Positions 36,682 through 64,000 of a DNA stretch of 64,000 bases are shown here, one piece after another. Source of the DNA: a plasmid; NCBI RefSeq assembly GCF_053078305.1, contig NZ_CP166875.1; one strand, 5' to 3'. The position numbers were made by a program, and so were the translations under genes. Position 1 is the first letter of the stretch. Each line of letters opens with the position of its first letter. A model generated the notes under the pieces. It saw nothing but the letters and a program-made list of their open reading frames with translations, ran no database searches and was not told where the DNA came from.

Positions 36682-36888
36682 ATGAAGTACTTGAACACTA
36701 CTGATTGTAGCCTCTTCCTTGCAGAGAGGTCAAAGTTTATGACGAAATATGCCCTTATCGGGTTGCTCGCCGTGTGCGCCACGGTGTTGTGTTTTTCACT
36801 GATATTCAGGGAACGGTTATGTGAGCTGAATATTCACAGGGGAAATACAGTGGTGCAGGTAACTCTGGCCTACGAAGCACGGAAGTAA
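36682..36888 (+). CDS. srnB: SrnB/PndA-type Hok-family type I toxin
   Basis: MKYLNTTDCSLFLAERSKFMTKYALIGLLAVCATVLCFSLIFRERLCELNIHRGNTVVQVTLAYEARK matches remembered SrnB. Confidence 0.8.
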   Translation: MKYLNTTDCSLFLAERSKFMTKYALIGLLAVCATVLCFSLIFRERLCELNIHRGNTVVQVTLAYEARK

Positions 36889-42057: not shown

Positions 42058-42311
42058 TATAAAAACTCCGCAGGTTTTAAACTAACCGTAATACGAGGCG
42101 GTTCAAATTCAACTGCATCAGCATCGGGCATCGCCAGAATGTCAATGAGAGTTCGTCGTTGTTGCGTCAATTTTCGGTATTCTTCGATACTAAGAAGTAC
42201 ATGTGCGGTTTTACCCCGATCAGTAATAAATACTGGACCATAATTCGTGGCGCGTTTGGCTCGAGTTACATCTTGATTAAGTTCCCGACTGGATAGGGTT
42301 GTAATCTTCAT
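42057..42311 (-). CDS. vagC: VapB/VagC antitoxin
   Basis: MKITTLSSRELNQDV..., overlaps toxin start. Confidence 0.8.
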   Translation of the reverse strand: MKITTLSSRELNQDVTRAKRATNYGPVFITDRGKTAHVLLSIEEYRKLTQQRRTLIDILAMPDADAVEFEPPRITVSLKPAEFL

Positions 42312-42424
42312 GCTGTTGCCTTTTGATGTATATAGGTACGTTACTACATTGTAGGGCATGAAATAGTACAATGCAAGAAATGTACTTGATTAGGGGTAGT
42401 CTTCGCCGCTTGTTGCTGTCAGAT

Positions 42425-42890: not shown

Positions 42891-43472
42891 TTATTTATAA
42901 AACGTTGCAATTTTAGCATCATTTTTTATTGTTCTTTTTAACCTGAAGTACGTCGATCGAGAGATACCTGTTTTTTCTGTCACACTGCCCAGAGATTCTC
43001 CCTGTGATATAAGCTCCAACGCTGTAGGCGTTCGTGGATGCTTCTTCCTGCCAAATTTTACGCCTGCGGCAAGTGCCGCTATTCTTCCGTCGTTTGTCCG
43101 CTCCAGAATACGCTCACGTTCCGCTTCAGCTACAGCAGCAAGGATTTGGATAACCATTTTGCCCATTGTCCCTTCTGTACTGAGACCGTTCTCCAGGAAC
43201 CGGATGGCGATCCCCTTTTTGTAACAGCTATCAACCACACGAATCATGTCAGCAGTGTTACGCCCCAGTCGGTCCATTTTTGTACAGATGATTACGTCGT
43301 CTTTCTCTGCACGGGCCAACAACCGCTGTAGTCCTTCCCGTTCATCAGTTGCGCCAGTCATCATATCCGTAAAAATACGATCTTCCCGTACCCCGGCATT
43401 TTTTAGCTCCGAGATTTGATGTGTTAGCTTCTGATGACTGGTTGATACCCGTGCATACCCCAATAACGCCAT
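42891..43472 (-). CDS. tnpR: serine-recombinase resolvase TnpR
   Basis: MALLGYARVSTSHQ catalytic Ser motif, C-terminal HTH. Confidence 0.85.
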   Translation of the reverse strand: MALLGYARVSTSHQKLTHQISELKNAGVREDRIFTDMMTGATDEREGLQRLLARAEKDDVIICTKMDRLGRNTADMIRVVDSCYKKGIAIRFLENGLSTEGTMGKMVIQILAAVAEAERERILERTNDGRIAALAAGVKFGRKKHPRTPTALELISQGESLGSVTEKTGISRSTYFRLKRTIKNDAKIATFYK

Positions 43473-43484
43473 TTTTAGTCTCAC

Positions 43485-43628
43485 TTATCGTTTTTGACAC
43501 TGCATGGTATCATAATGTACAAAATACGATTTTTGAAACCTGCTTTTATGCTGTTTTAGACAGGTATCAGATATCTTAATATTTGATACTAGCCATATTT
43601 AACAAATATTTAGCATTTTGGTAAATGT
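43485..43628. promoter_or_regulatory. res site region between tnpR and tnpA
   Basis: divergent intergenic region with TGTC..GACA-type dyads. Confidence 0.5.
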
Positions 43629-46600: not shown

Positions 46601-46667
46601 CAGTCTTTTGGAGGGAGTAGACCCACTAAGTGATATCGGAGATATTGAGTCCGAATATGACGGTTAA
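43629..46667 (+). CDS. tnpA: Tn3-family transposase TnpA
   Basis: 1012 aa, AT-rich, typical size for the family. Confidence 0.9.
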   Translation: MQKYKKRISILTKSEINELYQVPSFNPVERDEFFSLDISLKREIDKIINIESRVYLILITGYFRYKPVIPEFTLKDVKRDVKYIIQTYYKNESTNLNLNIPKSTKYRLVKRMLSTLGFEQLTPSIKNELSERLNDVATICMEPKYIFDELLAFLGQRRIALPGYSTVQNLVSDALNFERKRTINILSKRIYPATAQKITSIIHDDGILNSIRGYNYSTRDFSASEIENELRTHNVISSIYYEIKDIINSLGISQGNMEYYATIVKHSTTFRLKRHPKWQGILYLCCYLYFRYREINDKIITAFRYLVKKHKDASVLFAKARATEEIDLINKKLKFASKIFNFFVDSNIEDSIPFGYVREKVFSLISKDDMHLVSEFFDKNKIDVIEYQWQYIDSHHLKIANSIRKLFLAIDIVYDNEKSVIGQQITAAKDDLRGKGKLDAKDLRVIHPSEKNYIVKEGEINTQRFEFHMYSRVSNHLENGVFYAAESEQNKRLEDDLIERSYWHKNKSILIEKTGLERLITPITQTLNELENTFSDKLARITIGINSDANEFVKKQPHSNRLQWSLASKKWKTSIDNPIYNQIKNIGIVDVMKYVNNETNFLSVFNAISSRKNNLEADYNDLLACIFGNGANYGVHRMASASDRSIGILRDVNDKFIRPETTGMANTVISDAIANLSVYKYWTINEDSPFGSVDGQKHTCRINTFKARYSAKYFRKGKGVSAMTLVSNHVPLSTVVISPNEYEGHFAFDLLYNNTSEIQPKSLATDNHGINNVNFAILDIFGYQFSPRYAKFKKIFNELFDVILESDKLIIKLKKQFNFKLIEHEWENIQHIICSLSRKTTIQSTVVKKLSNTKRSNKTLAALREYDRVIKCIYVLDYADNKTLRQFVQQALNRGEAYHQLRRAIASVNGNQFRGGNDYQIDQWNDCARLIANCVIYYNSAILSRLVEKFEKENNKKAIDVLANLSPVAWRHILLGGNYSFEDQVAITNLDSLLEGVDPLSDIGDIESEYDG

Positions 46668-46733
46668 CAACATGATAAATAATGGTTTTTATGCTAAGAG
46701 TGAGACTTTTGGAGGAAATGGGCGCAGAACCCC

Positions 46734-46957
46734 TGTATCTGCCGTTCGGTTTTTGCACGAAGTTTTTCTGAGCTTTTACCGAACTGCATACGTTGCAGTT
46801 TCGCAACCAGCGCCTTCAGCCGGTTGATTTCGGAAGCATAAGCCGCCACCCGCTGTGAGAGCAGGCGGTTGTATTCAGCCATCTGGCGGATGGTGTCCTG
46901 TTGCGTCTGCAACAGTGCCCGCAGGCGGGCGTTCTCATGAGCAAGTGAGGTGTCCAT
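46734..46957 (-). pseudogene. IS66-family TnpC N-terminal fragment truncated by Tn3-family insertion
   Basis: leucine-zipper N-terminus MDTSLAHENARLRALL...; ORF ends at Tn IR. Confidence 0.7.
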
Positions 46958-46976
46958 ATCCTCACTTTACAACGGG

Positions 46977-47324
46977 TTATATGCGGATTCCAGCGCGTTC
47001 CGTTCGTTTCGGGTGCTTCCAGTTGATACCTTCAAGAAGCATGGATAACTGAGCCGGAGTAAGGTGCACCTTGCCGTCACGGGTGACTGGCCAGACGAAG
47101 CGGCCCCGCTCCAGGCGTTTGGTGAAGAGGCACAGTCCGTCACTGTCAGCCCACAACACTTTTATCTGGTCACCCCGGCGTCCGCGGAAGATGAACAGGT
47201 GTCCGGAGAACGGGTCATCCTTCAGGACGTTCTGAACTTTTGATGCCAGGCCGTTAAAGCCATTTCGCATATCGGTGATACCTGCAACCAGCCAGATACG
47301 CGAACCTGCAGGGAGAGATATCAT
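46977..47324 (-). CDS. IS66-family TnpB (orf2)
   Basis: 115 aa, typical IS66 orf2 size and sequence. Confidence 0.8.
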   Translation of the reverse strand: MISLPAGSRIWLVAGITDMRNGFNGLASKVQNVLKDDPFSGHLFIFRGRRGDQIKVLWADSDGLCLFTKRLERGRFVWPVTRDGKVHLTPAQLSMLLEGINWKHPKRTERAGIRI

Positions 47325-48001
47325 CAGTGGCTGCTCCCTTTTATTTCGCGGATAAGTGTCTGTAATAACGCCGGCGTCAGTTTACCTTTAAGCCTGAGAG
47401 TTCCGGCCGGCAGAACCAGCTCACAACACAGACTGTCGGACGGTGTATTTATCTGCTCTGGTTCCTGTGCGGGGGCCGGGATTTTATTATCCGGCTCCGG
47501 CGTTAACGTCACGGGAAGCAGTGCCGGCATATTTTTTCCGGAAGGCAGCAGGCCACCTTTCCGGTATTGATGGCGCCAGTTGAAGAGCAGGTTATCGTTG
47601 ATTCCGTTTTCCCGGGCGATCTGCGCCACACAGGCTCCGGGCTGCAGTGACTGCTCCACTAAGGCGATTTTAAACTCATAAGGGAAGTTGGGCCGCCGGG
47701 GACGTTTTTTTACCACGGGGGCTTCGGATATAACGGTGCTTTCAGGACGTACGACTGGTACCGTGGAAAATTGTCCGTAAAGGCAGGCATCAAGTTCCTG
47801 CTCCGACATGCCTGCGGGCAAAGGCCACGAAAGGCCAGCTCTCCGAAAGCGCACGAACATACTACAAACTGTTGATTTTGGTACACCCAGGCGACGCCCG
47901 GCCACAACCCGGGGTAAATGTTCTTCAAAGTGAAGACGTAAAGCTTCAGTGATCCAGGTCCGGTGTTTCATACGATAGTGTCCATTAAAAATGATGGACA
48001 T
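47324..48001 (-). CDS. IS66-family TnpA (orf1)
   Basis: contains KRPRRPNFPYEFKIALVEQSL...LLFNWRHQYR HTH region; start uncertain. Confidence 0.7.
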   Translation of the reverse strand: MSIIFNGHYRMKHRTWITEALRLHFEEHLPRVVAGRRLGVPKSTVCSMFVRFRRAGLSWPLPAGMSEQELDACLYGQFSTVPVVRPESTVISEAPVVKKRPRRPNFPYEFKIALVEQSLQPGACVAQIARENGINDNLLFNWRHQYRKGGLLPSGKNMPALLPVTLTPEPDNKIPAPAQEPEQINTPSDSLCCELVLPAGTLRLKGKLTPALLQTLIREIKGSSH

Positions 48002-48329: not shown

Positions 48330-48720
48330 TGTTTGAGAACCTTCGCCGCAAGGGGCATCACTGCCACGGCCGGAAACGACTGTCCGGGGGCAGACCGCAA
48401 AAGTTTTTGCCTGCTTTTGGGCAAAAAGTTTTGCGGGATGTGCATTTCACCCCTGGACTGGCGGAGACGGTTGTGGCTGTCTTTGCCCCCGGCGACAGGG
48501 GCTTAAACAGGTGTATGGCACCGGACACAACAACGGGCAGGGACCCGCCGCAACGACGAAGAGCGCGTGCGCGAAACGGCGTTGCCCCTTACATCCCGGC
48601 GGCCTTTTGCCGGGATGCCAGGAGCGCAGGCCACGGCGCGACAGAGGCGGCGCGACCGGAACGGTCGCTGCAAGCCCGGGGTTTCGCGTCAGGGATGGAA
48701 GCCCGCCAGGGCGGAGACAG
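48330..48720. promoter_or_regulatory. GC-rich hairpin repeat, copy 1 (candidate Frpo/ssi-type single-strand element)
   Basis: homologous to 53740-54010; core GAGCGCAGGCCACGGCGCGACA.AGGCGGCGCGACCG...CGGTCGCTGCAAGCCCGG. Confidence 0.5.
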
Positions 48721-49111: not shown

Positions 49112-49270
49112 CTACTTACCGGATTCGTAAGCCATGAAAGCCGCCACCTCCCTGTATCCGTCTCTGTAACGAATCTCGCACAGCGATTTTCGTGTCAGAT
49201 AAGTAAATATCAACAGTGTGAGACACACAATCAACACACACCAGACAAGAGAGCTGCGTGGTAGTTTCAT
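49112..49270 (-). CDS. hok: Hok host-killing type I toxin; overlapping mok frame extends to 49411
   Basis: [52 protein letters not shown]. Confidence 0.85.
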
Positions 49271-49544
49271 GGCCTTCTTCTCCTTGCGCAAAGCGCGGTA
49301 AGAGGCTATCCTGATGTTGTCAGACATATGGGATGCCTCGTGGGTTAATGAAAAATTAACTACGGGGCTATCTTCTTTCTGCCACACAACACGGTAACAA
49401 ACCACCTTCACGTCATGAGGCAGAAAGCCTCAAGCGCCGGGCACATCATAGCCCATATACCTGCACGCTGACCACACTCACTTTTCCTGAAAATAACCCG
49501 CTCATTCAGGCTGTTTACGGGTAATCTGTGTGATTGTTGCCGCA

Positions 49545-50264
49545 TCACGCCGCCTCCCGGAGTTTGTTCGGCACCATCCACCGCTCCATCTCACGGACAG
49601 CGTGACCCGCCTCCCTTGCTGCCATACCTGCCTCTGCGATGACCTGCCAGAATGGCATATCCTGCCACTGCCAGCGTTCCATCCCGGCCAGTGACGGAAA
49701 ACGCTCACCCCACTGCCAGAACAGGGTTTCCAGGTCATGCTCTGCCACCCGGTCACTCCAGCGTGCATACCAGCTTCCGACTGTTTCCGGTGAATGGAAC
49801 GCCAGTTCGATTTCAGCCTGAGCGACCAGCGTCTGGTACGCACGGGCTTTCTGCTCTGCCTCCCGTGCCTGCTGGCGGCTGTACTTCTGCATGACCAGCA
49901 CGGATTTATGGCGACTGCGTTCCCTGACACGGAACCGCACCGACGGGAACAACCGCTCTGCTGCATCACCGGGAAGGGGAAGGAGGCAGACCTCGCCCTG
50001 TGTTTCAATCAGCACATCGACGGCATACAGCCACTGAGAACGGTTGCCGCGCAGTTCTTCTGCGGTCAGGGACGGCATGAAAAATCGCAGGTCAGACAGC
50101 GAAATCCTGCGGCTTCCGTTCAGACAGCGGAAAAACGCCCCCGCATACGGATATTCCGCCAGCGTGTTACCCTGGTGGCGGCGTTTTTCTGTCTCCGCCA
50201 CCGCCCGCCATGCGGCCTGTTGCTCTGTGCTGAGAGGAACCAGTGCCTGTGAACGTGCGCTCAT
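49545..50264 (-). CDS. psiA: PsiA plasmid SOS-inhibition protein
   Basis: 239 aa matching remembered F PsiA. Confidence 0.9.
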
Positions 50265-50695
50265 GCCTGACCTCCTTCCGCCATCAGGATATGGATGATG
50301 TCACTGACGCTGTATCCCTGTTCATCCAGTGATGCCGCCAGTGCCAGTGAATGGCTGACAGCTTCCGGTGCAAACCGCCGCTGCACCTGAACCACCGCAA
50401 ACGGCTCACCACCGGCATTCACCAGAACCAGCACCCAGACCTGAGAGACATCGCCCGGTGAACATAACGCCAGGTGAAAACGTTCGTGGGCAGGCGTGAA
50501 ACGGACCTGGACGGGGAAAAAGCCGCCGAACTCGCTGCCGTACTCGCCATTCATCGTCCAGTTGTCCGGCGCATCCAGTTCCCGCATCACGGCGTGTGTC
50601 AGCTCACGGCGTTCATCACTTCCGGCAGCCCGGATATCTTCATATTCCTGTGCGCTCATGGTCTGTAATACATTCAGGGTCAGTTCAGTTTTCAT
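50261..50695 (-). CDS. psiB: PsiB RecA inhibitor
   Basis: [66 protein letters not shown] matches F PsiB. Confidence 0.9.
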
Positions 50696-50749
50696 CACGG
50701 TATCTCCCTTGCTGCCGCCCCGTCTCCGGCGGGGCGGTGTGGTTGTTCA

Positions 50750-52708
50750 TCAGGCGGCATCAGCCAGGTTATCGGCGCGTTCAGTGGCATCCGTCTGTGG
50801 ACGTGGTGAACCCATCCAGCCAGGCACCCAGCGGTTGTCTTTCATGTGGAACTCTGCATGTTCAGCGGCATCGCCTTTCTTCATCTTCTCCGCGTCCCGT
50901 GCGGCACCGGACAGTCCGGCATCATTCAGGGCATCGATAATCTGCGGCTTTTTCAGGTGACCGAAGAAGTTTGCTTTTGTCGGCTGCCACCAGTCACGCA
51001 TGTGAAAGCCGATGGCGCTCTCCAGCGAGTCCAGCGGACTGCGTGACGTGTGACCATACTCGCGGGTCTGAACGCCGTGGATGCTGCACGCGGTGCAGAA
51101 ACTGAGCAGTGATAACAGCACGTCCTGGCTGAGTGACAGGAACGTCGTCATGTCCCGTGCCCATCCCTCCGGTAACAGGGCAGCAAGACGGGCTTTTTCT
51201 GCCATCATCGCCATGAATGCGGCACCGTCCTTCCCCGATGGCGCATCGCTGGTCAGCGAATAATGTTTACATTCCAGGCTGATTTGTGCTGGTTTACTGT
51301 ACGCTCCGCTGCCAAACACATTCAGGCAGAGCGTCCATGCCAGCAGTGCCAGAGATTTGTCCGGTTGCTGCATGAGTGCCGCCTGGACTGCCAGCGTGCG
51401 TTCGGAAGACATTTTCGTCAGCAGTGGCAGACTGATTTCCTCCACTGACGCTTTCTCCTGCACCTGTTCCGTGCGGTCAGCGTCGTCAGTCACGTCATCT
51501 TCACTGCGCAACTGCACACCACGCTGGACACACACATTACCGTAACGCCAGGACACCACCACGCCACTTCCGGCACGCATCTCCGGCGTCCACGCCCTGA
51601 CCTTCGCCATGCAGTCAATCAGCTTCATTTCTGCTGCCAGCAGGTCAGATTCCTCACACTGGTTTTCCAGCGCGTCGTAACGCATCATCAGTTCGTTCAG
51701 GCGTTCTTCTTCTGCCTCCGTCAGCACCGCTTCCGGCTCCGGCAGGTTGCGGTATGCCCGGGAATCTTCACGGCACTCACCGACAGGCTCCATGCGTCCG
51801 GCGCACCATTCCCAGCCTTCGGCTTCCCGAAGGTGTTCAGCGACAGCCTGGAGTTTTTCCAGCAGGGCGGCATCGAGCGCCACGCAGTCCACATAGCCAC
51901 CCTCGTCATCGCTGAACAAATCAGTACGCAGTTCGTCAGGTGAGAAAGCATCAGCCCCCACGAAGCGGAATTTAGTGTTGTCCTTCACCGCCACTTCACT
52001 TTCCGTAATCAGATTGCGGATAACCCGCACATCCGGTTTACCGCCCCATCCTGACTGGCAGGCCGCTTCAAACACCTGCACCTGACGCGCGGTGTCGTTC
52101 TCCAGCGCCAGCGCCTGACAGTGCTCGGTGGTGATGCGGTCTTCTGCCAGCGCATCGAGGATGACAGGCGCAAGGTCTGCCAGTTTCAGCATTCGCTGAA
52201 CGTGGCGGGGCGAATAACCCAGCAAATCACCGATTTGTGCAGGTGTTTTGCCTTCCTGCGCCATTGCACGGAATCCGGCAATCTGTTCGGCAGGGTGCAT
52301 ATCCCGACGATGACCGTTCTCGGTCATCGATGCGGCAGTCGCCAGCTCCTGCGGAATGACCTTCACACGGACAGGCCAGTCAACCTGAATGATGTCACGC
52401 TCTGCCAGCATGTTGAGTGCTGCCAGTCGGCGACCACCTGCGGCGACACCGTAACGGTCACCTGGCAGGGCATGAACAACCAGATTCTGTAACAGGCCGA
52501 CACCTTTAATGGAGTCCGCCAGTTCGCTGACGGACTCCGCAGAATACGGCACCGTGCGCACATTCAGCGGAGACTTAATCAGCGAGGCCAGCGGCACGCT
52601 CACTTCCTCCGTCTGCGCCAGCAGGGCCGACAGGACTGTTTCCTGCGTTTTTGCAGGTTTACGGCTGGATTTACGCTCCGTTTTTGCCTTAGACTCTGTA
52701 ACTGACAT
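50750..52708 (-). CDS. ParB-like nuclease domain protein of leading region
   Basis: ~652 aa with N-terminal ParB/Srx fold motif; position between ssb and psiB as in F. Confidence 0.8.
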   Translation of the reverse strand: MSVTESKAKTERKSSRKPAKTQETVLSALLAQTEEVSVPLASLIKSPLNVRTVPYSAESVSELADSIKGVGLLQNLVVHALPGDRYGVAAGGRRLAALNMLAERDIIQVDWPVRVKVIPQELATAASMTENGHRRDMHPAEQIAGFRAMAQEGKTPAQIGDLLGYSPRHVQRMLKLADLAPVILDALAEDRITTEHCQALALENDTARQVQVFEAACQSGWGGKPDVRVIRNLITESEVAVKDNTKFRFVGADAFSPDELRTDLFSDDEGGYVDCVALDAALLEKLQAVAEHLREAEGWEWCAGRMEPVGECREDSRAYRNLPEPEAVLTEAEEERLNELMMRYDALENQCEESDLLAAEMKLIDCMAKVRAWTPEMRAGSGVVVSWRYGNVCVQRGVQLRSEDDVTDDADRTEQVQEKASVEEISLPLLTKMSSERTLAVQAALMQQPDKSLALLAWTLCLNVFGSGAYSKPAQISLECKHYSLTSDAPSGKDGAAFMAMMAEKARLAALLPEGWARDMTTFLSLSQDVLLSLLSFCTACSIHGVQTREYGHTSRSPLDSLESAIGFHMRDWWQPTKANFFGHLKKPQIIDALNDAGLSGAARDAEKMKKGDAAEHAEFHMKDNRWVPGWMGSPRPQTDATERADNLADAA

Positions 52709-52773
52709 AGTTAGTACCTCCCAAAACGGTAATAATGATTGTCTGCCGGACGCGTTCCCGTCCGGCACCTCTC

Positions 52774-53049
<276 letters not shown>

Positions 53050-53064
53050 TCACAGTCAGGCCAG

Positions 53065-53592
53065 TCAGAACGGGATATCGTCTGAAAATCCGTAATCCTC
53101 CCCCTCCGGCGGCTGAGGCTGAGGCTCGGGCTGCGCGGCCTTACGTCCACGGCCTTTCGTTTTCGCGCCACTTTTTTTCGTCGCGTCAGCACTCTGTGGC
53201 TGCCCATTCTGCTGAGGCTGCGGTTGTGCCTGAGCGTTCTGCTGTGGTGCAATCCCCAGCATCTGCATGGTGCCCGTGGTCTTAACAAGAATTTCAGTGA
53301 CGTAACGGGTGATACCGTTATCTTCCCAGCTACGGGTTCGGAGTTGCCCCTCGATATAGACCTGCGCGCCCTTGCGCAGATATTCACCAGCCACTTCCGC
53401 GAGCTTGCCGAACAGCACCACGCGGTGCCATTCCGTCTGCTCCCGCATCTCCCCCGTCTTTTTGTCGCGCCAGCTTTCTGATGTGGCCACCTGCAGGTTT
53501 GCCACTGCGCCCCCGTTGGGGATGTAACGGACCTCCGGATCATTGCCCAGACGCCCGACGAGGATGACCTTGTTGATACCACGTGCACTCAT
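53065..53592 (-). CDS. ssb: plasmid single-stranded DNA-binding protein
   Basis: [25 protein letters not shown]-fold; acidic C-terminal tail DDIPF. Confidence 0.9.
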
Positions 53593-53739
53593 GAGAACCT
53601 CCTGACTGAAAGATGTGAGATAAACCGGATACCGGAGACGGGACGTTCATATGCCCCTTCAGAGGAGCGAAAGCTCCTCCTGCCGTCCACTTCTTCGGGG
53701 TTTCTCCCCGCAGTGGACCTTTCCGATGGGGGCCCGTTT

Positions 53740-54010
53740 ACCGCCTCACGGGACAGCTGTCCGGGGGCGGACGCAAAATTTTTTGCCGGGTTCATGGCTA
53801 AAAATTTTGTGGCCGGTATATCTTCCCCTGGACTGATGGAACGGGAGGTGGTTACGTCTGCCCCCCGGAAAGTCCACAGCGGGAAACAGGCCGCAGAGGT
53901 GGCGGCAGAAGAGGAGCGCAGGCCACGGCGCGACAAAGGCGGCGCGACCGTTCCGGTCGCTGCAAGCCCGGGTTTTCACGCATCGGACCGTAGCGACAGC
54001 CCGAAACCGC
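53740..54010. promoter_or_regulatory. GC-rich hairpin repeat, copy 2, upstream of ssb
   Basis: homologous to 48330-48720. Confidence 0.5.
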
Positions 54011-54292
54011 GCCAGCGGGTTCGGCGGAGACTGGCGGGTGCGCCAGCAGTTGCCTGTCGGAGTCGGGCCTGACGACCGGATGCCGCCAGGCAGCCGGGAG
54101 CCGAAGGGGCGCATGTGTAAGAAGGTTCTTTAACGACAGGTCTGTAACAGGTACTTCCTGAAACAACGCCTGTCACCAACAGGAAGGGTAACGGGCGACG
54201 CGCCAGCGTGGCCCGCATCCCTTCCGGCAGGCGCCAGCCTGCCAGGGGTTTTCGCGCGGGCTGACAGGCGGCCTCCACCGCCTACCCCTGTA

Positions 54293-54484
54293 TCACCTGT
54301 GCCTGCTGCCCTGAAGGATGTAGTGACCACCGAGGAAAACCGCCTGCTGATTCGCCACAAAATCACAGATTTCATCAACAATCTGCGCGGTGGTGAGCGG
54401 TTTCTGCCCCATTTCACGACGCCGCGCATTAATCACGGCTTTGTAATTGCGCAGAATTTCGCGGGTTTCCGTGCTGATATTCAT
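54293..54484 (-). CDS. hypothetical small protein
   Basis: 63 aa ORF. Confidence 0.35.
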   Translation of the reverse strand: MNISTETREILRNYKAVINARRREMGQKPLTTAQIVDEICDFVANQQAVFLGGHYILQGSRHR

Positions 54485-54903
54485 TACCCGTTCTCCCCGT
54501 CCAGCGCCTGACGCATTACCCGCATAATCTCACGTTCTTCCCTGACAAATGCGTCACCGTCGCCCCCGTTCTCGCTCCCTACAGCATGGAGGCGATAAAT
54601 TTCACTACCAGCCATCACCATCACTTTTTCCAGCAGCACCGCAGGGACTGTTACAAGACGGTTTACGCGCTTTTCCTCCATCAGTTCATTGACAATATCG
54701 GAAACAACTCTGTCACATGCGCCATATACAAAAGCATCGTCCAGCCGCTGCATGACGGTTTCCAGCTCATCGTCTGACAGGTTCCAGTCCCGGGCTATGT
54801 GGCGCACATCCCCGCGGGTCAGCACCACGGCAAAAACACATTCACTGTCCGGCACGTCTGTATTCAGCACTTCGCGGATAATTTCTTTAACAGTACAGTA
54901 CAT
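54484..54903 (-). CDS. hypothetical acidic protein (paralog of 56437-56871)
   Basis: shared LSD.E..TV..RL.D and VTVPA.LL motifs with 56437-56871 product. Confidence 0.5.
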   Translation of the reverse strand: MYCTVKEIIREVLNTDVPDSECVFAVVLTRGDVRHIARDWNLSDDELETVMQRLDDAFVYGACDRVVSDIVNELMEEKRVNRLVTVPAVLLEKVMVMAGSEIYRLHAVGSENGGDGDAFVREEREIMRVMRQALDGENG

Positions 54904-54949
54904 GTTCTCGTCTCCTTTACAGGGGCGGCATTGCCGCCCCGTCCGTTAA

Positions 54950-55375
54950 TCAGTCCAGTGCCGCGTAAATCGCGTTACATTCGGGGTGAAATTCGATGTG
55001 GCTCCACAACTGCGCATCGCGCATCCGGTAAAGCTGGGTCAGTCCTGCATCCCCGCTGTCGTGGTACAGCCACAACTGGCGGTTAATCACAAGGGAAGTC
55101 AGGATGATACCTGCGGCATCAGCACTCACAGTGCGGTCAAACCAGTTTTCACCGTTGACCAGATGAAAACGGTCGCCATCCGGCATCATGTAACCGCCAC
55201 CGTCCGGCAGGCGGATGAAATGCCAGAAGCCTCCCTGATATTCCGGCATCATTTTTTGCGCCAGCGCGTACACATACGCCTCGGCATACAGAAAATCGTT
55301 GCCAAACAGGTAAGGCAGAAAGGAGAGACGGTCGCACTCTTCAACGTTCAGAGTGACAGATTTCGCATACTGCAT
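54950..55375 (-). CDS. klcA: KlcA/ArdB-family anti-restriction protein
   Basis: 141 aa from [30 protein letters not shown]; family assignment from memory. Confidence 0.6.
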
Positions 55376-55621
55376 GGGATTTCCTCCGTTGTTCACATAT
55401 TCCGCGACACCGGGCGGTGCCGTGCCTCCAGAAAAGCCGGGCGATAAGGCGGGGATGCAAGGGCGCAAGGGAAGCCGCAGCCTGACGCACACGGCTGGCG
55501 GGAGTTGGAGGGTGAGACCGCGAAATCTGAGCGGGTGAACGACCGGAAAATCACGGCAGACGGGAAGGAGGGACCGGGTGACCGCCGCGTGCATTTTACC
55601 CTTGCATCCCCGCCAGCGTCA

Positions 55622-56392
55622 TCATTTCCGGATTTTCGCCAGTGCATCCGCCATGCTGCGGATTTCATCCCGTGCCTCCAGAACAACCTCCCGCAGAATA
55701 TCCCTGTCAAACCAGCGACGGGACGGTTCATCCGGTATACGCAGCACATCACAGACCAGACCACTGGCCAGGATATGCTCCACACACTCACAGACCAGGT
55801 ACATTTCCACCGCCGAAAAACGGGCGCCACGGTTCAGAATGGCATCGAGCACCACGGGCAGATTTTCGTCATCTTCATCAAGCCAGCAGGGGTAATCGCT
55901 TTCCTTCACGACCAGACGAAAGCGGCGCGTCTGGCGGGTCAGCAACGTCTGACCGGTGGTGGTCAGCGCCGCCCGGATACGCCGCGTATCTTCTGCCACC
56001 TGGTAACAGATGCTTCGTACTGCATTGCGCACCGCATCAAGAACTGCCCTGATTTCTTCCTCCGTCAGCCATTCACCGGCATACGGGAAAGACACCTGCG
56101 TTCCGTCTGCCGGAAGTACCGGCAGCGCCTGCCACTGGCTGCCGGACAGAACAAGTTCCGCTCCGGTTCCGGTCAGTTTCTGAATGGCGGAGGCCAGGTG
56201 CGGCGGCAGTACGCCATCATGGCGGCTGATAAGTAACGTCGCCAGCCGGGATATATCCAGTCGCACATAAATGCTGATCCAGCCCGGATAGTGCGGATTC
56301 AGTTGTTCAATATCCGTCTCTTCCGGCCAGCCCTGCGCCAGCAGCAGGTTACGGGCGTGGCGACAAACCAGTGCATTCAGCGTTTTGTTCAT
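55622..56392 (-). CDS. hypothetical protein
   Basis: 256 aa ORF from MNKTLNALV. Confidence 0.45.
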
Positions 56393-56436
56393 GATTAATG
56401 GTCTCCCTGAATCGCCGCCCGAAGGCGGCGATAACA

Positions 56437-56871
56437 TCAGTCGTTTTCGTGTGTGTTGTTTTTCAGCAGGGCGCGGGCCTGATTAACCACCGCCTGACGG
56501 CGGGTGACGCATTCCGGGACGACGAGGCCGTTATCACGGGCGTCCCACTCACGTTTCCACAGTGCCTGTTCGGCGGTCTGAATCAGGGACGCCAGCAGTT
56601 CAGCCGGGACGGTCACCTGGCGGTTTTCGCTCACGTTGCTGATAATCTCCATCGCCACGCCGGAAGAAATACCGGACTCAGTCCGCTGGTCTTCCGGGAT
56701 GTCCTCCAGGCGCACCAGGACGGTCCTGATTTCATGATCGGACAGGGAAATATCCATTCCGTCAGCGAGGGCCTGAATCTCTTCCGGGGACCAGACAACC
56801 AGCATCAACGGCGTGTCTCCCGGATACTTTACTGCCAGCGCCCGGCAGAGCGTTTCGCATGTTCCGTACAT
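56437..56871 (-). CDS. hypothetical acidic protein (paralog of 54484-54903)
   Basis: 144 aa, shared motifs with 54484-54903 product. Confidence 0.5.
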
Positions 56872-56882
56872 ACTCTCTCCCC

Positions 56883-57104
56883 TCAATCTTTGAAGCAGGA
56901 ATCCAGTTCCAGAATTTCGGTATATGCCTCCATCAGGAGGCGGTTTGCGCGAAACAGCGTCTGACGCACCAGACGTTCCGGCAGGGTGTCAGCATTAAAG
57001 CTGTACCGCCGCTCCATCTCATTCATGGTTGTACGCAGGTCGCACATGGCATTGGCCACCTCCGCCACTTCGGCGCGAAGGTTTTCATGTCCGGCATAGT
57101 TCAT
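56883..57104 (-). CDS. hypothetical small protein
   Basis: 73 aa ORF. Confidence 0.35.
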   Translation of the reverse strand: MNYAGHENLRAEVAEVANAMCDLRTTMNEMERRYSFNADTLPERLVRQTLFRANRLLMEAYTEILELDSCFKD

Positions 57105-57788
57105 TTACGCAGCCTCCGGCATAAACCAGTCATCATTTGCGGCCCCCTGCTGCATGGCCCGCTGTACGGCAGCCAGACGTTGCTGTCCGGCACGGTGATA
57201 CTGCTCAAGCAGCTCGATACCGATATACCGGCGTCCGGACTGGAGGGCGGCGACGCAGGTTGAGCCGCTGCCTGCAAACGGGTCCAGCACAATCGCGTTC
57301 GGATGTGTGAAGCTCTCAATCAGTGGTTGCAGGCTGGTAACGGGCTTTTCCGTCGGGTGATGGCGGTTGCCCGAATATTTCCAGCCCAGCACATCCGGCA
57401 GCGGGTTACGGGGCCGGGCCGGACTGCCCTTTGCCAGGATGTAAGCGCATTCGTGGCGGTACGCGACATACACAGATTTGGATGTGTAGTTTTTGGTGAA
57501 GACCAGGTGCCCAACCACGCTGAATCCGGCGCGTTTCCAGGCCGCCATAAAGCGGTCAATACGGTGCCAGCCGTAGAAGCTGACCATCAGCGCGTCTTTT
57601 TTGAGTACGCGGTACATCTCATTGCTGGCAGGTTGCAGCCAGTCATCATTAACGTCACCGGCAATGGTGCGCCCGGAACGGTCACGGAAACCGACGAGAT
57701 ATGGCGGATCGGTTAATATGAAATCAATGGCGTTATCAGGAATCGTGGCCATAACACGCACGCAGTCACCCAGGATAAAACGGGACAT
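57105..57788 (-). CDS. orphan N6-adenine DNA methyltransferase
   Basis: DPPY catalytic motif, FAGSGSTCVAA AdoMet-binding motif, no adjacent restriction enzyme. Confidence 0.8.
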   Translation of the reverse strand: MSRFILGDCVRVMATIPDNAIDFILTDPPYLVGFRDRSGRTIAGDVNDDWLQPASNEMYRVLKKDALMVSFYGWHRIDRFMAAWKRAGFSVVGHLVFTKNYTSKSVYVAYRHECAYILAKGSPARPRNPLPDVLGWKYSGNRHHPTEKPVTSLQPLIESFTHPNAIVLDPFAGSGSTCVAALQSGRRYIGIELLEQYHRAGQQRLAAVQRAMQQGAANDDWFMPEAA

Positions 57789-58171
57789 AACAGCTCCTTC
57801 TCTTACAGAGGGCACCGGGAGGGCACCCCTGTGGTGCCCGTTCCCCGCTGCCTGTGGGCTGTACACCGCGTCCGGTAACGGGTCAGGCCGACCGTGGAAT
57901 ACCGCAGCCGTCGTCTTTTTGACGGCAAGGTTATGCCGCGAAAGCGGCTTGAAGGGCGTTCATCAGAAAAGGGCGACGGGCTGGCGTACACTGTCACCGA
58001 CGCCAGCCGGGAGCGGTAAAAGCGCCCGTCCCGTGCCCGGCCGGACGCGGGACACTGACCACAGGCAGCGTTTATGCCGCGCCGCATCAGCCGGCGCAGT
58101 AAAAAGAGGAGCACAGCGACATCCTTTACCGGAAAAGAAACGGGCGGTTGCCCGCCCGTCTCCGTCATACT

Positions 58172-59098
58172 TCATCCGCCATAATGCGCCACCTTGTCGA
58201 CTATCCACGCAGGTCCGGTGACTTCCGGCAGCTCATCGTCATCTGTCGGGGAAGACCATTCCAGTTCCCCCCACAGCACATCAACGAGCTCTCCGCGCTC
58301 ATACAACTGCCAGCCACAGAAATCACAGCCCTGTTCGGCATACCAGTGCTCCAGCGTGCAGCTGAAACGGCGGCTTAATTCTGCAATAACGTCGCTTTCC
58401 GGCTGACACCACGGCGTGTCGAAATCAACCTGAATGAAGTTGTCTCCCTGACTACTGATATTCACCTCATACCCCACAGGCCACTTCACGCCATACCGTT
58501 CCGTATACCAGTGATATGCAGAAGGAACACCGTTCAGAACACCACCGTTAAAGCCATTCACTTCAACATCCAGGCGGGTCGGCAGAACCGTCAGCAGGTC
58601 AAACGGCATGGTTTTTTCCGGCAGTACGTTGTCACACAGACGGTTCCACCACACCGATACATCCTCGTTACTCCAGAAGCCACACCAGTCACCTCTTTTT
58701 GCGGTGAAAAGTGCGGTGATGGTATCCCTGACATCGTCCGGTAATCCTTTCCAGCGACGCTGTCCAGTACCGCTCTGCAGCCAGAGTTCATGCAGCATCA
58801 GGCAGTTTTGCTCATCCAGCAGTACACCGTCCTGCAGGTGTGTCAGCCAGCGGGTGAACGCGATATTCTCCGGCGATACAACGCCACGTCCGGCAGCCGT
58901 CAGTCCGGGGCATGGTTCAAACCGCACATCTTCAGTGGTCTGCAGAAGTCCGGCACTTCCGGCCAGAAACAGCTGAATACCTTCATTTGTGGCGCGGCGA
59001 TAAAGCGGTGTGACTGCACCGCTGGCCAGTCGTTTAATCTCAGCAATCTGTGCCGGTTCACCAGAAAAATGCATACGATTTGAGCACCAGTTTGGCAT
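58172..59098 (-). CDS. hypothetical Cys/Trp-rich protein
   Basis: 309 aa from MPNWCSNRMHF; no recognised catalytic motif. Confidence 0.45.
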   Translation of the reverse strand: MPNWCSNRMHFSGEPAQIAEIKRLASGAVTPLYRRATNEGIQLFLAGSAGLLQTTEDVRFEPCPGLTAAGRGVVSPENIAFTRWLTHLQDGVLLDEQNCLMLHELWLQSGTGQRRWKGLPDDVRDTITALFTAKRGDWCGFWSNEDVSVWWNRLCDNVLPEKTMPFDLLTVLPTRLDVEVNGFNGGVLNGVPSAYHWYTERYGVKWPVGYEVNISSQGDNFIQVDFDTPWCQPESDVIAELSRRFSCTLEHWYAEQGCDFCGWQLYERGELVDVLWGELEWSSPTDDDELPEVTGPAWIVDKVAHYGG

Positions 59099-59450
59099 GG
59101 GAATTCTCCTCTCACATGCGGCCTCCATCAGGCCGTGCCGCACCTGTAACCGGGCGACCGCATACGAATGCAGGTGCGGCCCCGAAGCCGCATCGCGTGG
59201 AGGAGGAACGACGAAACGTGACCGGGTGAGGAGGCTGGCGACAGCGACACACTTGCATCGGATGCAGCCCGGTTAACGTGCCGGCACGGCCTGGGTAACC
59301 AGGTATTTTATTCACAGAACCGTGCGCAAAATGCTGTGGATAAGCTGGACACAGCAGTCCACAGCAGGCATACAGCCACCCCCTCAGAGAATTGAGCGTT
59401 TTTTAGTCACAATAATGACATTTGACTGTGTGGATTCAGTTATTAGAATG

Positions 59451-59466
59451 CTGTATATACATACAG
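59451..59466 (+). promoter_or_regulatory. LexA box CTGTATATACATACAG upstream of impC
   Basis: matches CTGT-N8-ACAG SOS box consensus. Confidence 0.75.
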
Positions 59467-59489
59467 CAATAGAAAAGGGAGATGAGAAC

Positions 59490-59738
59490 ATGATCCGCAT
59501 TGAAATTCTTTTCGACCGCCAGAGCACAAAAAACCTCAAATCAGGCACACTTCAGGCGCTACAGAATGAAATCGAACAACGTCTGAAACCACACTACCCG
59601 GAAATCTGGCTGCGTATAGACCAGGGCAGCGCCCCGTCTGTATCTGTCACAGGAGCCCGCAACGACAAGGATAAAGAACGTATCCTGTCTCTGCTGGAAG
59701 AAATCTGGCAGGACGACAGCTGGCTGCCTGCAGCATGA
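59490..59738 (+). CDS. impC: ImpC
   Basis: 82 aa MIRIEILFDRQSTKN...; first gene of impCAB. Confidence 0.75.
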   Translation: MIRIEILFDRQSTKNLKSGTLQALQNEIEQRLKPHYPEIWLRIDQGSAPSVSVTGARNDKDKERILSLLEEIWQDDSWLPAA

Positions 59739-60172
59739 GTACCGTTTATCACCGTCCGGCTGACCCTTCAGGCGATGACAGTTACGTGCGACCGTTGTTT
59801 GCCGATCGTTGCCAGGCCGGTTTTCCTTCGCCTGCCACTGATTATGCTGAGCAGGAACTGGATCTGAACAGCTATTGCATCAGCAGACCTGCAGCCACCT
59901 TCTTTCTGCGCGCCAGCGGTGAATCGATGAACCAGGCTGGCGTGCAGAATGGTGATCTGCTGGTAGTGGACAGGGGCGAAAAACCACAACACGGGGACAT
60001 CGTTATCGCTGAGATCGACGGTGAGTTCACCGTCAAACGACTGCTGTTGCGCCCACGCCCGGCACTGGAGCCGGTTTCAGACAGCCCGGAATTCCGCACA
60101 CTGTATCCGGAAAACATCTGTATTTTTGGTGTTGTCACTCACGTGATACACAGGACGCGGGAGTTACGCTGA
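59735..60172 (+). CDS. impA: ImpA/UmuD-like self-cleaving mutagenesis protein
   Basis: 145 aa, LexA-like S24 peptidase motif GESM...K. Confidence 0.85.
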   Translation: MSTVYHRPADPSGDDSYVRPLFADRCQAGFPSPATDYAEQELDLNSYCISRPAATFFLRASGESMNQAGVQNGDLLVVDRGEKPQHGDIVIAEIDGEFTVKRLLLRPRPALEPVSDSPEFRTLYPENICIFGVVTHVIHRTRELR

Positions 60173-61446
60173 TGTTTGCACTGGCTGATATCAACAGTTT
60201 CTACGCCTCATGTGAAAAAGTTTTCCGCCCGGACCTTCGCAACGAACCGGTCATCGTACTCAGCAATAACGATGGCTGTGTGATCGCGCGCAGCCCGGAG
60301 GCAAAAGCCCTTGGCATCAGAATGGGGCAGCCCTTGTTTCAGGTGAGACAAATGCGCCTGGAGAAGAAAATACATGTATTTTCCAGCAATTATGCGCTGT
60401 ACCACAGCATGAGCCAACGGGTCATGGCTGTTCTGGAGTCGCTTTCTCCCGCAGTTGAGCCCTACTCAATTGATGAAATGTTTATTGATTTGCGGGGGAT
60501 AAATCATTGCATCTCTCCGGAGTTTTTTGGTCATCAGCTCAGGGAACAGGTAAAGAGCTGGACAGGACTCACCATGGGGGTGGGCATTGCGCCTACAAAA
60601 ACGCTGGCTAAAAGTGCACAGTGGGCAACAAAGCAATGGCCACAGTTTTCCGGTGTGGTCGCGCTGACGGCAGAAAACCGTAATCGGATCTTGAAGCTAC
60701 TGGGACTGCAGCCAGTTGGTGAGGTCTGGGGAGTAGGACACAGACTGACGGAAAAGCTGAATGCGCTGGGTATTAACACAGCACTGCAGCTGGCGCAGGC
60801 TAACACGGCATTCATCCGGAAAAACTTCAGCGTCATTCTTGAGCGTACGGTACGCGAACTCAACGGCGAGTCCTGCATATCCCTGGAAGAAGCACCACCG
60901 GCAAAACAGCAGATTGTCTGTAGTCGCAGTTTTGGTGAACGAATCACAGACAAAGATGCCATGCACCAGGCTGTTGTTCAGTATGCAGAGCGGGCCGCAG
61001 AGAAACTACGTGGGGAGCGTCAGTATTGCCGGCAGGTGACGACATTTGTACGGACATCCCCCTTTGCAGTAAAAGAACCCTGTTACAGCAATGCCGCTGT
61101 GGAAAAGCTTCCATTGCCCACACAGGACAGCCGGGACATTATTGCCGCCGCATGCAGAGCCTTAAACCATGTCTGGCGTGAAGGGTACCGCTATATGAAG
61201 GCAGGAGTCATGCTGGCTGATTTCACACCATCGGGTATAGCGCAGCCGGGATTATTTGATGAAATCCAGCCCCGTAAAAACAGTGAAAAGTTAATGAAAA
61301 CACTCGATGAACTGAACCAGTCGGGAAAAGGGAAAGTGTGGTTTGCGGGGCGAGGAACCGCCCCTGAATGGCAAATGAAACGGGAAATGTTGAGTCAGTG
61401 TTATACAACTAAATGGCGAGATATTCCCCTGGCCAGGCTGGGTTAG
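60172..61446 (+). CDS. impB: ImpB/UmuC-like Y-family DNA polymerase
   Basis: 424 aa, MFALADINSFYASCE N-terminus typical of UmuC. Confidence 0.85.
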   Translation: MFALADINSFYASCEKVFRPDLRNEPVIVLSNNDGCVIARSPEAKALGIRMGQPLFQVRQMRLEKKIHVFSSNYALYHSMSQRVMAVLESLSPAVEPYSIDEMFIDLRGINHCISPEFFGHQLREQVKSWTGLTMGVGIAPTKTLAKSAQWATKQWPQFSGVVALTAENRNRILKLLGLQPVGEVWGVGHRLTEKLNALGINTALQLAQANTAFIRKNFSVILERTVRELNGESCISLEEAPPAKQQIVCSRSFGERITDKDAMHQAVVQYAERAAEKLRGERQYCRQVTTFVRTSPFAVKEPCYSNAAVEKLPLPTQDSRDIIAAACRALNHVWREGYRYMKAGVMLADFTPSGIAQPGLFDEIQPRKNSEKLMKTLDELNQSGKGKVWFAGRGTAPEWQMKREMLSQCYTTKWRDIPLARLG

Positions 61447-61447
61447 T

Positions 61448-61864
61448 TCAGTCATCTCCGAACATATTTTCAGCGTTTCTTCTGGTCTGGTCTTCACCGT
61501 CATTTCTCGACAGACTCTGCTCTGTAAGAGGAGTACTGCAATCCACAGACGTATGGAGACCAGATTGTTTTTCCAGTAATTCAAGCAATTTCTTTTCAAC
61601 CGAAAAAGCACCTGGTATCACGCTGGAAATCACCTTATTAATATCATCCAGAGTCGTATTTTCTGTCAGTAACTCCGATATCAGCAAAGGAAGACGTTTA
61701 TCTATAGCTGCAAACGCCGCACCAGTAACTAACATCGCGCGCATGAAACGTCCCCGCTCCTTCAGTTTTTCATTTGCAATGAGCTCATCTGCTATCTTAT
61801 CTCCTGTCCGTTCATCCGGGAAAAGTTCAAATGAGCAGCGTCTGGATTTATTTTCATCACTCAT
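61448..61864 (-). CDS. parR: ParR/StbB centromere-binding adaptor
   Basis: 138 aa downstream of parM, similar to R1 ParR. Confidence 0.7.
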   Translation of the reverse strand: MSDENKSRRCSFELFPDERTGDKIADELIANEKLKERGRFMRAMLVTGAAFAAIDKRLPLLISELLTENTTLDDINKVISSVIPGAFSVEKKLLELLEKQSGLHTSVDCSTPLTEQSLSRNDGEDQTRRNAENMFGDD

Positions 61865-62837
61865 TAGTCACACCACCTTTCATTTTTATCATTCCCATGA
61901 CTAAATCAAACTGCGGGGATGAGCTCAGATAAAAGCGCTCATCAGGAACCTTAGTCAGGTTCTTCACAGCCTCGGCCACAATTTCAGCCCCACCACCAAC
62001 ACACATTACATGTGTATAGTCGGTGAAACGGCTGATGACATCATTAACTCGTTTAATAAGCAACTTCTGCCGTTCATTGATAACATTAATGATAGACTCA
62101 CGCTGTTCAGCATTATAAATGCGACGGGAAAGGTAGTCAGGTTCATTACGGTGCACAATGATATTGTCAGCCTGGAATGAGCTCACTCTTGTATTAGCAT
62201 GTACAGCCATCTGTTCCTTAACCCCGGATGTAATCAGGGACACGCCGATATTCGGATCACACCAGGTTTTTGTAATCCCTGTCATTTTGCTACGAACATG
62301 CGACACATCAAGAGTTGTACCACCGAGATCTACGATCAAAAGGGATTCATCATCCTCAAGCCCCGCAAGAACACTGAAACCAGCGGGAATACTTTCAGGA
62401 AGAACGGAAACACTGCGAATAACAAATGCATCACTCCCCTGCACCCGTACTTCACGCATCACATTTTTTTTCTTTCTTTCAATGTTTTGCTTATTTTTCT
62501 GATTGTTGGCGTCAAGGTATTCAGAGATCGGCAATGTGACGATGACATCAACAGGCTGCGCTTTCAGGCCGGTCTGCTGTAGCGCATGCTGAATGGCCAC
62601 AACATTCACATCACTGTACTGATAGCGTGTTTCAGTCGTTACGACAGCATCAGCACTTAATGGATCAAATGAAAACTTCTCGCCGTCGATCTCGTAATTA
62701 GCCGGGGCAGCATCATCCAGTAAACTAAAAGACCATTCCGGTTTAAAGCTGTTAGGGCTGATTAACGTTTTCACGTCACCATCCTCCAACCAGGCAAGTT
62801 TAATGTTGGTAGAACCATCATCAATAAAGATTTTCAT
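61857..62837 (-). CDS. parM: ParM/StbA actin-like segregation ATPase
   Basis: MKIFIDDGSTNIKLAW... clear similarity to R1 ParM. Confidence 0.85.
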   Translation of the reverse strand: MKIFIDDGSTNIKLAWLEDGDVKTLISPNSFKPEWSFSLLDDAAPANYEIDGEKFSFDPLSADAVVTTETRYQYSDVNVVAIQHALQQTGLKAQPVDVIVTLPISEYLDANNQKNKQNIERKKKNVMREVRVQGSDAFVIRSVSVLPESIPAGFSVLAGLEDDESLLIVDLGGTTLDVSHVRSKMTGITKTWCDPNIGVSLITSGVKEQMAVHANTRVSSFQADNIIVHRNEPDYLSRRIYNAEQRESIINVINERQKLLIKRVNDVISRFTDYTHVMCVGGGAEIVAEAVKNLTKVPDERFYLSSSPQFDLVMGMIKMKGGVTNE

Positions 62838-63100
62838 AACCAGTCTCCGTTGCTCATAAACAAATAGAAAAAACAAACATGCTTCATACATGCAATGTAT
62901 ATTTAATTATAATGAAAAAATGGTCTTTCTGAAAGGAGAAATACAACATAAAAACACGATAAATTGCATGTGCATTGTACACACAACTTTAAGACCAGAG
63001 GAAATCATAGATACAAAAACATTATGAAGGTTATATGTAATACATAAATGCAATATAAAAACATCTTTGACATCATGGTTCAGGTTAAGGGAAAAGGAAT
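62838..63100. promoter_or_regulatory. candidate parC-like centromere/promoter region
   Basis: AT-rich region upstream of parM with reiterated ATGCAAT/ACATGC motifs. Confidence 0.35.
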
Positions 63101-63250
63101 GACATGGTGAAACTGAGAGGAAAGGAAAGCGGTGACGAATCATGTCACCATAAACAGAAAGATGTCTAATGGGGACTCTTTAGGTACGTGAAGAATCCCC
63201 ATAACGCATTTAAAAGACACACATCAGATACCCTTAAGGTATCCGATAGT

Positions 63251-63559
63251 TTATTGACCTATTGCACCATCACGTTCAAGCTTCTCTCTTATAGCCTCAA
63301 TAATATATGAGCTAAAATCCAGAGATGTTTTACTGGTCGCTTTAAGTTCCGCATGAGCTTCAAAATACGACAGCGGTATGGCCTTAAGATTCTTAGCCTT
63401 CGTCCTGGCAGCCACGGGACGACCTGAAACTTCCTCTGCACCTTCATTTGGCTGAGACGGGGCTGTTGCTGTTACGGCAGAAGAAGAAGTTTGTAATCTG
63501 GCAGAATCCACCAGGTTTTTCAGTTTTTCAGCCTGTGCACTAAATTTCGCTTTGCTCAT
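63251..63559 (-). CDS. candidate ribbon-helix-helix partition protein (ParG-like)
   Basis: 102 aa, C-terminal pattern consistent with RHH fold; inference only. Confidence 0.35.
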   Translation of the reverse strand: MSKAKFSAQAEKLKNLVDSARLQTSSSAVTATAPSQPNEGAEEVSGRPVAARTKAKNLKAIPLSYFEAHAELKATSKTSLDFSSYIIEAIREKLERDGAIGQ

Positions 63560-63645
63560 GAGATAACCAAGGATGTTTGTTAGATACTTAAAAGATATCC
63601 ATTAAAAGCCCAAAGGATACTATATGGATACCCAATAGATACACC

Positions 63646-64000
63646 TTACTGTTTGTTATTTTCAATCAGATGATTGATTTCTTCGATCAGGGCAATAACT
63701 TCCTTACCTCCTGCCGAATAGCGCCCATGAACAGACTCAGTGATTCCCATCCCAGTCTCAATGACATCCTCAAATTCTGCACGAGCAGAAATGCGGCTCT
63801 TCATCAGTTTCAGATGTTTGAACGATGGCAGGATTGCATCAAGCTTAGGGAATTTCTTCTTGTTAGGATTAACTTTACAGAGATACAGGTGAGCAGTTAT
63901 ATCGGTCCCCATGATAGAGCTGATTTCGTCCAGTACTCCATCAAAATGCATCAAACCAATACGTTCAGTCAGGGAGTCTTTTGAAGGGACAATAACGCAG
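63646..64000 (-). CDS. candidate ParA-type ATPase, C-terminal part (N-terminus outside window)
   Basis: C-terminal sequence pattern resembles ParA/ParF; open to window edge. Confidence 0.35.
   Translation of the reverse strand, partial: CVIVPSKDSLTERIGLMHFDGVLDEISSIMGTDITAHLYLCKVNPNKKKFPKLDAILPSFKHLKLMKSRISARAEFEDVIETGMGITESVHGRYSAGGKEVIALIEEINHLIENNKQ

Follow-up and report, generated by a model that had tools for sequence, protein, structure and literature searches.

The locus is read, at a probability of roughly 0.93, as an intact and ordinary impCAB operon, a plasmid-borne and LexA-repressed homologue of dinI and umuDC (DNA polymerase V). The window, the whole stretch of plasmid DNA that was analysed, is 64,000 nucleotides long (64 kb). 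Within it, impC, impA and impB form three co-oriented reading frames on the + strand, which overlap by 4 nt and then by 1 nt. The first-pass annotation had assigned an SOS-regulated operon to positions 59451 to 61446, and both limits were exact: the core of the predicted LexA box starts at 59451 and impB ends at 61446. The features of the operon are as follows.

59422-59449, + strand: imp promoter, with the -35 hexamer TTGACT at 59422-59427, a 16-nt spacer and the -10 hexamer TAGAAT at 59444-59449
59449-59468, + strand: predicted LexA (SOS) box TGCTGTATATACATACAGCA, a near-consensus 20-mer
59451-59466, + strand: core CTGTATATACATACAG of the predicted LexA box, of the form CTGT-N8-ACAG
59477-59481, + strand: Shine-Dalgarno sequence GGGAG, 8 nt 5' of the impC ATG, from direct reading of the sequence
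59490-59738, + strand: impC, 82 aa, DinI-like
59735-60172, + strand: impA, 145 aa, predicted UmuD-like self-cleaving subunit, with an ATGA overlap with the impC stop
60172-61446, + strand: impB, 424 aa, predicted UmuC-like Y-family polymerase, with a TGATG overlap with the impA stop

The naming of the operon as impCAB was confirmed by ImpC, the sequence of which is exactly that of Swiss-Prot IMPC_ECOLX from TP110. ImpC matched the Pfam DinI family (E 8e-18; 65 bits, cut-off 24.2), and the solved DinI structure 1ghh was aligned along its whole length (residues 3-79). Its score on the NCBIfam DinI equivalog model was 41 bits, below the cut-off of 111. Thus, ImpC is a DinI paralogue and not DinI itself.

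ImpA contains the Pfam Peptidase_S24 domain and scored 141.9 bits on the NCBIfam UmuD subfamily model (curated cut-off 110). The solved UmuD structures 8gmt and 1umu matched it at E 1e-35. Residues Ala28-Gly29 of ImpA align with the cleavage site Cys24-Gly25 of UmuD, and Ser64 and Lys101 align with the catalytic Ser60 and Lys97. By this homology, ImpA is predicted to be cleaved at Ala28-Gly29.

ImpB contains the Pfam domains IMS, IMS_C and DUF4113, can be aligned to solved Y-family polymerases, and scored 789 bits on the NCBIfam UmuC subfamily model (cut-off 431) with model positions 1-422 of 422 covered. The complete palm, fingers, thumb and little finger of a Y-family polymerase and the UmuC C-terminal domain are present. 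Residues D6, D101, E102, W186 and G187 are all retained; these are fully or almost fully conserved among 140 diverse UmuC-family representatives. The catalytic carboxylates D101 and E102 were found in 140/140 representatives and D6 in 139/140, the remaining one having a gap. With a motif of the beta-clamp-binding QL[SD]LF type as the criterion, the clamp-type motif QPGLF was located at residues 358-362, a position that we take to correspond to the beta-clamp motif of UmuC. Use of the clamp by ImpB would be expected by homology. The UmuD-like and UmuC-like proteins named in the earlier annotation are intact and lie above their NCBIfam subfamily cut-offs. The catalytic and processing residues of ImpA and ImpB are all present, and all three reading frames are of full length.

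A search for known RNA families gave no match at E up to 1 in positions 58900-61900. The structured intergenic DNA at 59144-59320 has 4405 homologues, with identities above 80% in every case and above 95% in nearly all, and no homology was found between it and the two Frpo-like repeats of the window.

The operon is widespread. Over 2.2 kb, the local sequence shares 99.5% identity with the operon copies of more than 1,000 plasmids, which belong mainly to the I-complex (IncI1, IncK, IncB/O/Z). Matches to the operon region were found in 3,855 PLSDB records and, among 5,426 complete E. coli genomes, in 2,473. The impCAB operon of the IncI1 plasmid TP110 was reportedly described by Lodwick, Owen and Strike in 1990. 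It and the I-complex copies of pTF2 and pMS7163B share with the local copy the genes, their order, the overlaps, the promoter and the SOS box. The neighbours of the I-complex copies, the DUF1281 gene and stbB/parM, are also shared; in the IncK2/Z plasmid p3RM9976, the DUF1281 gene lies upstream and divergent, and stbB/parM lies downstream and convergent, followed by parA. The local copy differs from these in its 16-nt spacer, in a TG rather than a TA flank of the box, and in the ImpB substitutions W55L, Q108R and R190H. The plasmid that carries it also differs from the usual hosts, having F-type tra genes and an IncFII repA in place of an I-type backbone.

Compared with umuDC and dinI of E. 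coli, the imp operon likewise comprises LexA-repressed genes, an S24 self-cleaving subunit with a Ser-Lys dyad, a Y-family polymerase with a C-terminal DUF4113 and a DinI-type modulator. However, the imp genes are plasmid-borne, the DinI-like gene is joined into the same operon whereas E. coli dinI stands apart from umuDC, ImpA has an Ala-Gly cleavage site where UmuD has Cys-Gly, and ImpC falls under the DinI equivalog cut-off. Other umuDC-like, SOS-controlled two-gene cores of mobile elements are mucAB of pKM101, samAB of a Salmonella plasmid, rumAB of R391 and humD of phage P1. To our knowledge, these lack a third, DinI-like gene. Such homologues have been surveyed as markers of the boundaries of leading-region islands (PMC11541004). 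Their sequence relationship to the local operon is only distant, the best 50%-cluster representatives being 54-60% identical to ImpB.

The local allele was compared with the common I-complex allele. The local promoter lacks a 2-bp TG, which gives a spacer of 16 nt instead of 18 nt. Position 2 of the box is changed from A to G (TGCTGT for TACTGT), at a cost of 1.7 bits on the approximate LexA matrix described below. ImpA carries A81G, a common variant, and ImpB carries the three substitutions named above. In pTF2, a weak second LexA-like site was predicted at -48 with a heterology index of 13.49 (PMC12211044); the 2-bp deletion removes its CTG-N10-CAG spacing, and the site is therefore lost here. 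Positions 50172-64000 of the window are 100% identical to the E. coli contig JPQG01000008.1.

Two simple accounts of the rare allele were set aside. A sequencing error was ruled out by a second independent assembly, which has the identical promoter and the identical ImpB, so the allele represents a real lineage. The uniqueness of the promoter allele was rejected in part, as the IncF plasmid pRHB21-C11_2 also has a 16-nt spacer and the IncK2/Z plasmid pPIB-2 also has the TG flank. A scan of viral contigs for the exact promoter allele gave no match and was uninformative.

The 16-nt spacer, the lost second LexA-like site, the slightly weaker box flank and the three ImpB substitutions occur together in this allele. 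It is conceivable, although we consider it unlikely, that this rare combination adaptively adjusted the basal and induced levels of mutagenesis after an IncF plasmid had captured an I-complex island.

Somewhat less credible still is the view that the operon is a decaying relic, in which the ImpB substitutions or the altered promoter are inactivating and SOS is no longer exploited. The exact ImpB was found on 3 contigs, against at least 1000 contigs each for the exact ImpC and ImpA, but the identical allele is present in two independent assemblies. The common allele, and presumably E. coli UmuC as well, has W55 and R190. However, among the 140 UmuC-family representatives, column 55 holds Y, F, A, L, V or W (L in 17/140), column 190 holds R, P, S or H (H in 11), and column 108 varies widely, while D6, D101 and E102 are retained in the local protein. 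Inactivation of ImpB by W55L, Q108R and R190H was thus rejected as a candidate: the three positions vary in the family, the local residues at columns 55 and 190 are natural ones, and they give no sign of inactivation. For the promoter, no PLSDB record was at least 99% identical across its 121 nt; nevertheless, both of its changes are found separately on other plasmids, and spacers of 16 and 18 nt are equidistant from the 17-nt optimum. Truncation of the operon is common, with at least 80% of it present in 2090 of the 3855 matching plasmid records, and its toxicity when overexpressed (PMC10286972) would favour loss, yet the local frames are of full length and ImpB matches the UmuC model from end to end. 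No finding contradicts the reading as an intact impCAB operon, and the local allele is predicted to be active as a polymerase.

The presence of a LexA box before impC, as the first-pass annotation had proposed, was examined together with the promoter. TTGACT-16-TAGAAT was the top sigma-70 match within 59100-61700, with 10 of 12 positions. A LexA operator was defined as 20 bp close to TACTG(TA)5CAGTA that overlap a promoter, and TGCTGTATATACATACAGCA is such a sequence. It shares its first base with the end of the -10 hexamer, and 21 nt separate its 3' end from the impC ATG. Because the box starts on the last -10 base, the expected transcription start is covered.

To score the candidate sites, a LexA matrix was derived from 17 known SOS boxes of E. 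coli; the matrix is an approximate one, and so are its scores. On this matrix, the 20-mer scored 25.6 bits, compared with 23.5 for the recA box and 26.8 for the umuDC box. The runner-up in the 64-kb window reached 16.2 bits. By our own estimate, chance alone would give about 0.003 sites of 25 bits or more in 128 kb of two-strand sequence. The matrix scan gave no extra LexA box near psiB, near ssb or elsewhere in the window; the other sites of at least 16 bits lay only inside impB and the Tn3 transposase gene, and their number equals the chance expectation. In seven diverged alleles, both promoter hexamers and the box arms CTGTATA and ATACAG are invariant, whereas the central bases of the box drift.

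LexA-dependent expression of the near-identical pTF2 operon agrees with this assignment. For the common-allele box of the IncI1 plasmid pTF2, TACTGTATATACATACAGCA, a heterology index of 1.60 was reported, and in proteomics of a hyper-SOS lexA mutant ImpC was increased 21-fold, ImpA 9-fold and ImpB about 2-fold (PMC12211044). UV protection and mutagenesis have reportedly been shown for near-identical copies, and translesion synthesis or UV mutagenesis for the impCAB operons of TP110 and Shigella (work cited in PMC12211044 and PMC10286972). Overexpression of impCAB was toxic, and transposon insertions upstream of it were orientation-biased (PMC10286972). The toxicity of forced expression explains the tight repression. 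That the palindrome is no operator, with the operon constitutive or otherwise controlled and the likeness to a LexA box fortuitous, is the least credible alternative and highly improbable: the bare CTGT-N8-ACAG motif has 3 matches in the 64-kb window against 0.98 expected and is for that reason not significant alone, but the full 20-mer stands well above the runner-up, overlaps both the -10 hexamer and the transcription start, has invariant arms around a drifting centre, and shares its core with an operon that is strongly induced in the hyper-SOS lexA mutant (PMC12211044).

The first-pass annotation had also noted psiB and psiA in the window, and both were identified by Pfam and NCBIfam matches. 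They belong to an island on the - strand with the following genes.

49545-50264, - strand: psiA, 239 aa, with a Pfam PsiA match and an NCBIfam subfamily score of 416 bits against 243
50261-50695, - strand: psiB, 144 aa, Pfam PsiB at E 3e-63
50750-52768, - strand: parB-like gene
53065-53592, - strand: ssb, Pfam SSB at E 4e-37
57105-57866, - strand: orphan N6/N4 methylase gene
58172-59143, - strand: DUF1281 gene

The island also contains a DUF905 gene, a KlcA/ArdB-type antirestriction gene and a DUF1380 gene on the same strand. PsiB is of full length, scoring 277 bits on the NCBIfam equivalog model (cut-off 100) with model positions 1-144 of 144 covered. The cluster order ssb-parB-psiB-psiA, with hok/sok beyond psiA and with Frpo-like repeats, is that of the leading regions of F and ColIb-P9. 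The description of the imp operon as lying beside the SOS-inhibition genes was overstated, because psiB is 8.8 kb from impC, on the opposite strand and with about a dozen genes between, and impCAB is transcribed divergently from the whole island.

F-type tra genes (+ strand) and an IncFII replicon (repA) with CopA were located in the left half of the window. In combination with the I-complex island, this marks the plasmid as an IncF/I-complex hybrid. In canonical F-like plasmids, psiB and psiA are co-oriented with tra and lie immediately upstream of oriT and traM. Here, in contrast to the F and ColIb-P9 clusters, the island and the F-type tra genes have opposite orientations. An IS66 fragment and a Tn3-family tnpA/tnpR pair disrupt the oriT-proximal side of the island, which is cut off from an I-type oriT. 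No oriT adjoining the island was found within the 64-kb window.

In a survey of 21,907 conjugative elements, umuCD homologues often formed the distal boundary of leading-region anti-defence islands, and the umuDC-like operons faced away from these islands (Samuel et al., 2024; PMC11541004). By comparison with this description, the divergent umu-like operon and the content of the island match, and the adjoining oriT is absent from the window. The island copy probably lies outside the leading position for F-type transfer, as judged from a window without oriT, and its inversion relative to tra makes its early-expression role in this hybrid uncertain. Since the island is no longer in the leading, T-strand-transcribable orientation, the usual timing, in which PsiB acts early and ImpCAB late, may be uncoupled in this plasmid.

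The further claim that psiB and psiA dampen SOS held for only one of the two genes. SOS suppression is experimentally credited to PsiB with SSB and not to PsiA, despite its name as an SOS-inhibition protein; deletion of psiA made the mating-induced SOS response slightly lower (PMC8406263). The statement that the plasmid both suppresses and exploits SOS corresponds to the accepted picture, but it poses no paradox, as the two are separated in time (PMC11541004): PsiB is transient on entry, and impCAB comes later, after real damage.

The following course of events is proposed for this operon. Without damage, a LexA dimer on the near-consensus box would block the single sigma-70 promoter, because the box overlaps the last -10 base and the expected transcription start. 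DNA damage would lead to RecA filaments and these to the self-cleavage of LexA, after which a single transcript would yield ImpC, ImpA and ImpB through translational coupling. ImpA is predicted to cleave itself on RecA filaments at Ala28-Gly29 by means of Ser64 and Lys101, giving ImpA'. A complex of ImpA'2-ImpB would then act with RecA and the beta clamp in low-fidelity lesion bypass, with mutations as the price. ImpC, judged by its homology to DinI, probably tempers the RecA-dependent processing of ImpA.

In the context of its neighbours, impCAB would mark the distal limit of a leading-region anti-defence island. PsiB, with SSB, would briefly block RecA activation when the plasmid arrives in a new cell as single-stranded DNA. 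Once the plasmid is established, impCAB would serve it and the host cell in response to genuine DNA damage, being expressed from double-stranded DNA upon LexA cleavage.

The locus is an already known system in its ordinary configuration and offers no new concept. Published work already covers the operon with its SOS box, LexA dependence and toxicity upon overexpression, as well as its location at the border of leading-region islands that contain psiB. The points of local interest, both minor curiosities, are the rarity of this natural allele and the IncF/I-complex hybrid that carries it. Plasmid error-prone polymerases can increase mutation rates under antibiotic or UV stress, and because such polymerases travel with resistance plasmids, their correct annotation is useful.

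The promoter of the SOS-regulated impCAB operon varied in its spacer (59428-59443), where alleles differ by one TG unit. The spacer was 16 nt long in the window and in the IncF plasmid pRHB21-C11_2, and 18 nt long in the examined alleles of I-complex (IncI1/IncK/IncB/O/Z-type) plasmids. Compared to pTF2, an IncI1 plasmid with near-identical impCAB, in which a weak second LexA-like site is predicted, the 16-nt form abolishes that predicted site. Two weak LexA-like 20-mers occurred in the window, as many as expected by chance:

60764-60783, inside impB, 16.2 bits
45656-45675, inside the Tn3 transposase gene, 16.1 bits

At the other end of the operon, the stops of impB and stbB are convergent (61444-61450) with 1 nt between them. 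A search of the + strand up to 61700 showed no terminator-like site. Given these adjoining stops and the missing terminator-like site, SOS-induced imp transcription could enter the stbAB (parMR-type) partition operon as antisense read-through.

The GC-rich intergenic DNA at 59144-59320, which separates the DUF1281 gene from the imp promoter, is strongly structured, with single-strand DNA fold z values of -3.8 (- strand) and -3.1 (+ strand). Approximately 4,400 plasmids, F-types included, matched this segment, nearly all at more than 95% identity, and some partial matches stopped at 59298. It had no match in Rfam and no similarity to the Frpo-like (single-strand promoter type) repeats of the window. 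The segment might act as a single-strand promoter, or as a priming signal, for the operon of the anti-defence island. The Frpo-like element is a GC-rich direct repeat of 69 nt (48620-48688 and 53912-53980; copies 91% identical), with one copy upstream of ssb and the other beyond hok/sok. Single-strand promoters of the Frpo/ssi type would be expected at such positions in a leading region.

Further features of the window were as follows:

36593-36749, +, sok antitoxin RNA match near the IncFII replicon
41641-42057, -, PIN-domain toxin gene, directly after the 104-aa ORF
42057-42371, -, 104-aa ORF, directly before the toxin gene
42891-43484, -, Tn3-family resolvase
43629-46667, +, Tn3-family transposase
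46977-48001, -, IS66 fragment with orf1 and orf2 genes only
49268-49439, -, sok antitoxin RNA match after psiA

The Tn3-family genes and the IS66 fragment (42891-48001) break up the oriT-proximal side of the island. The two sok matches mean two hok/sok-type loci in the window, and the gene pair at 41641-42371 (-) looks like a vapBC-type toxin-antitoxin pair.

The ssb-psiB-psiA anti-defence island (49500-59150) and the F-type tra genes (1-34000) occupy opposite strands, whereas in related F plasmids psiB has the tra orientation and adjoins oriT. This difference suggests that an IncFII plasmid captured the island as an I-complex segment, with its leading-region placement lost.
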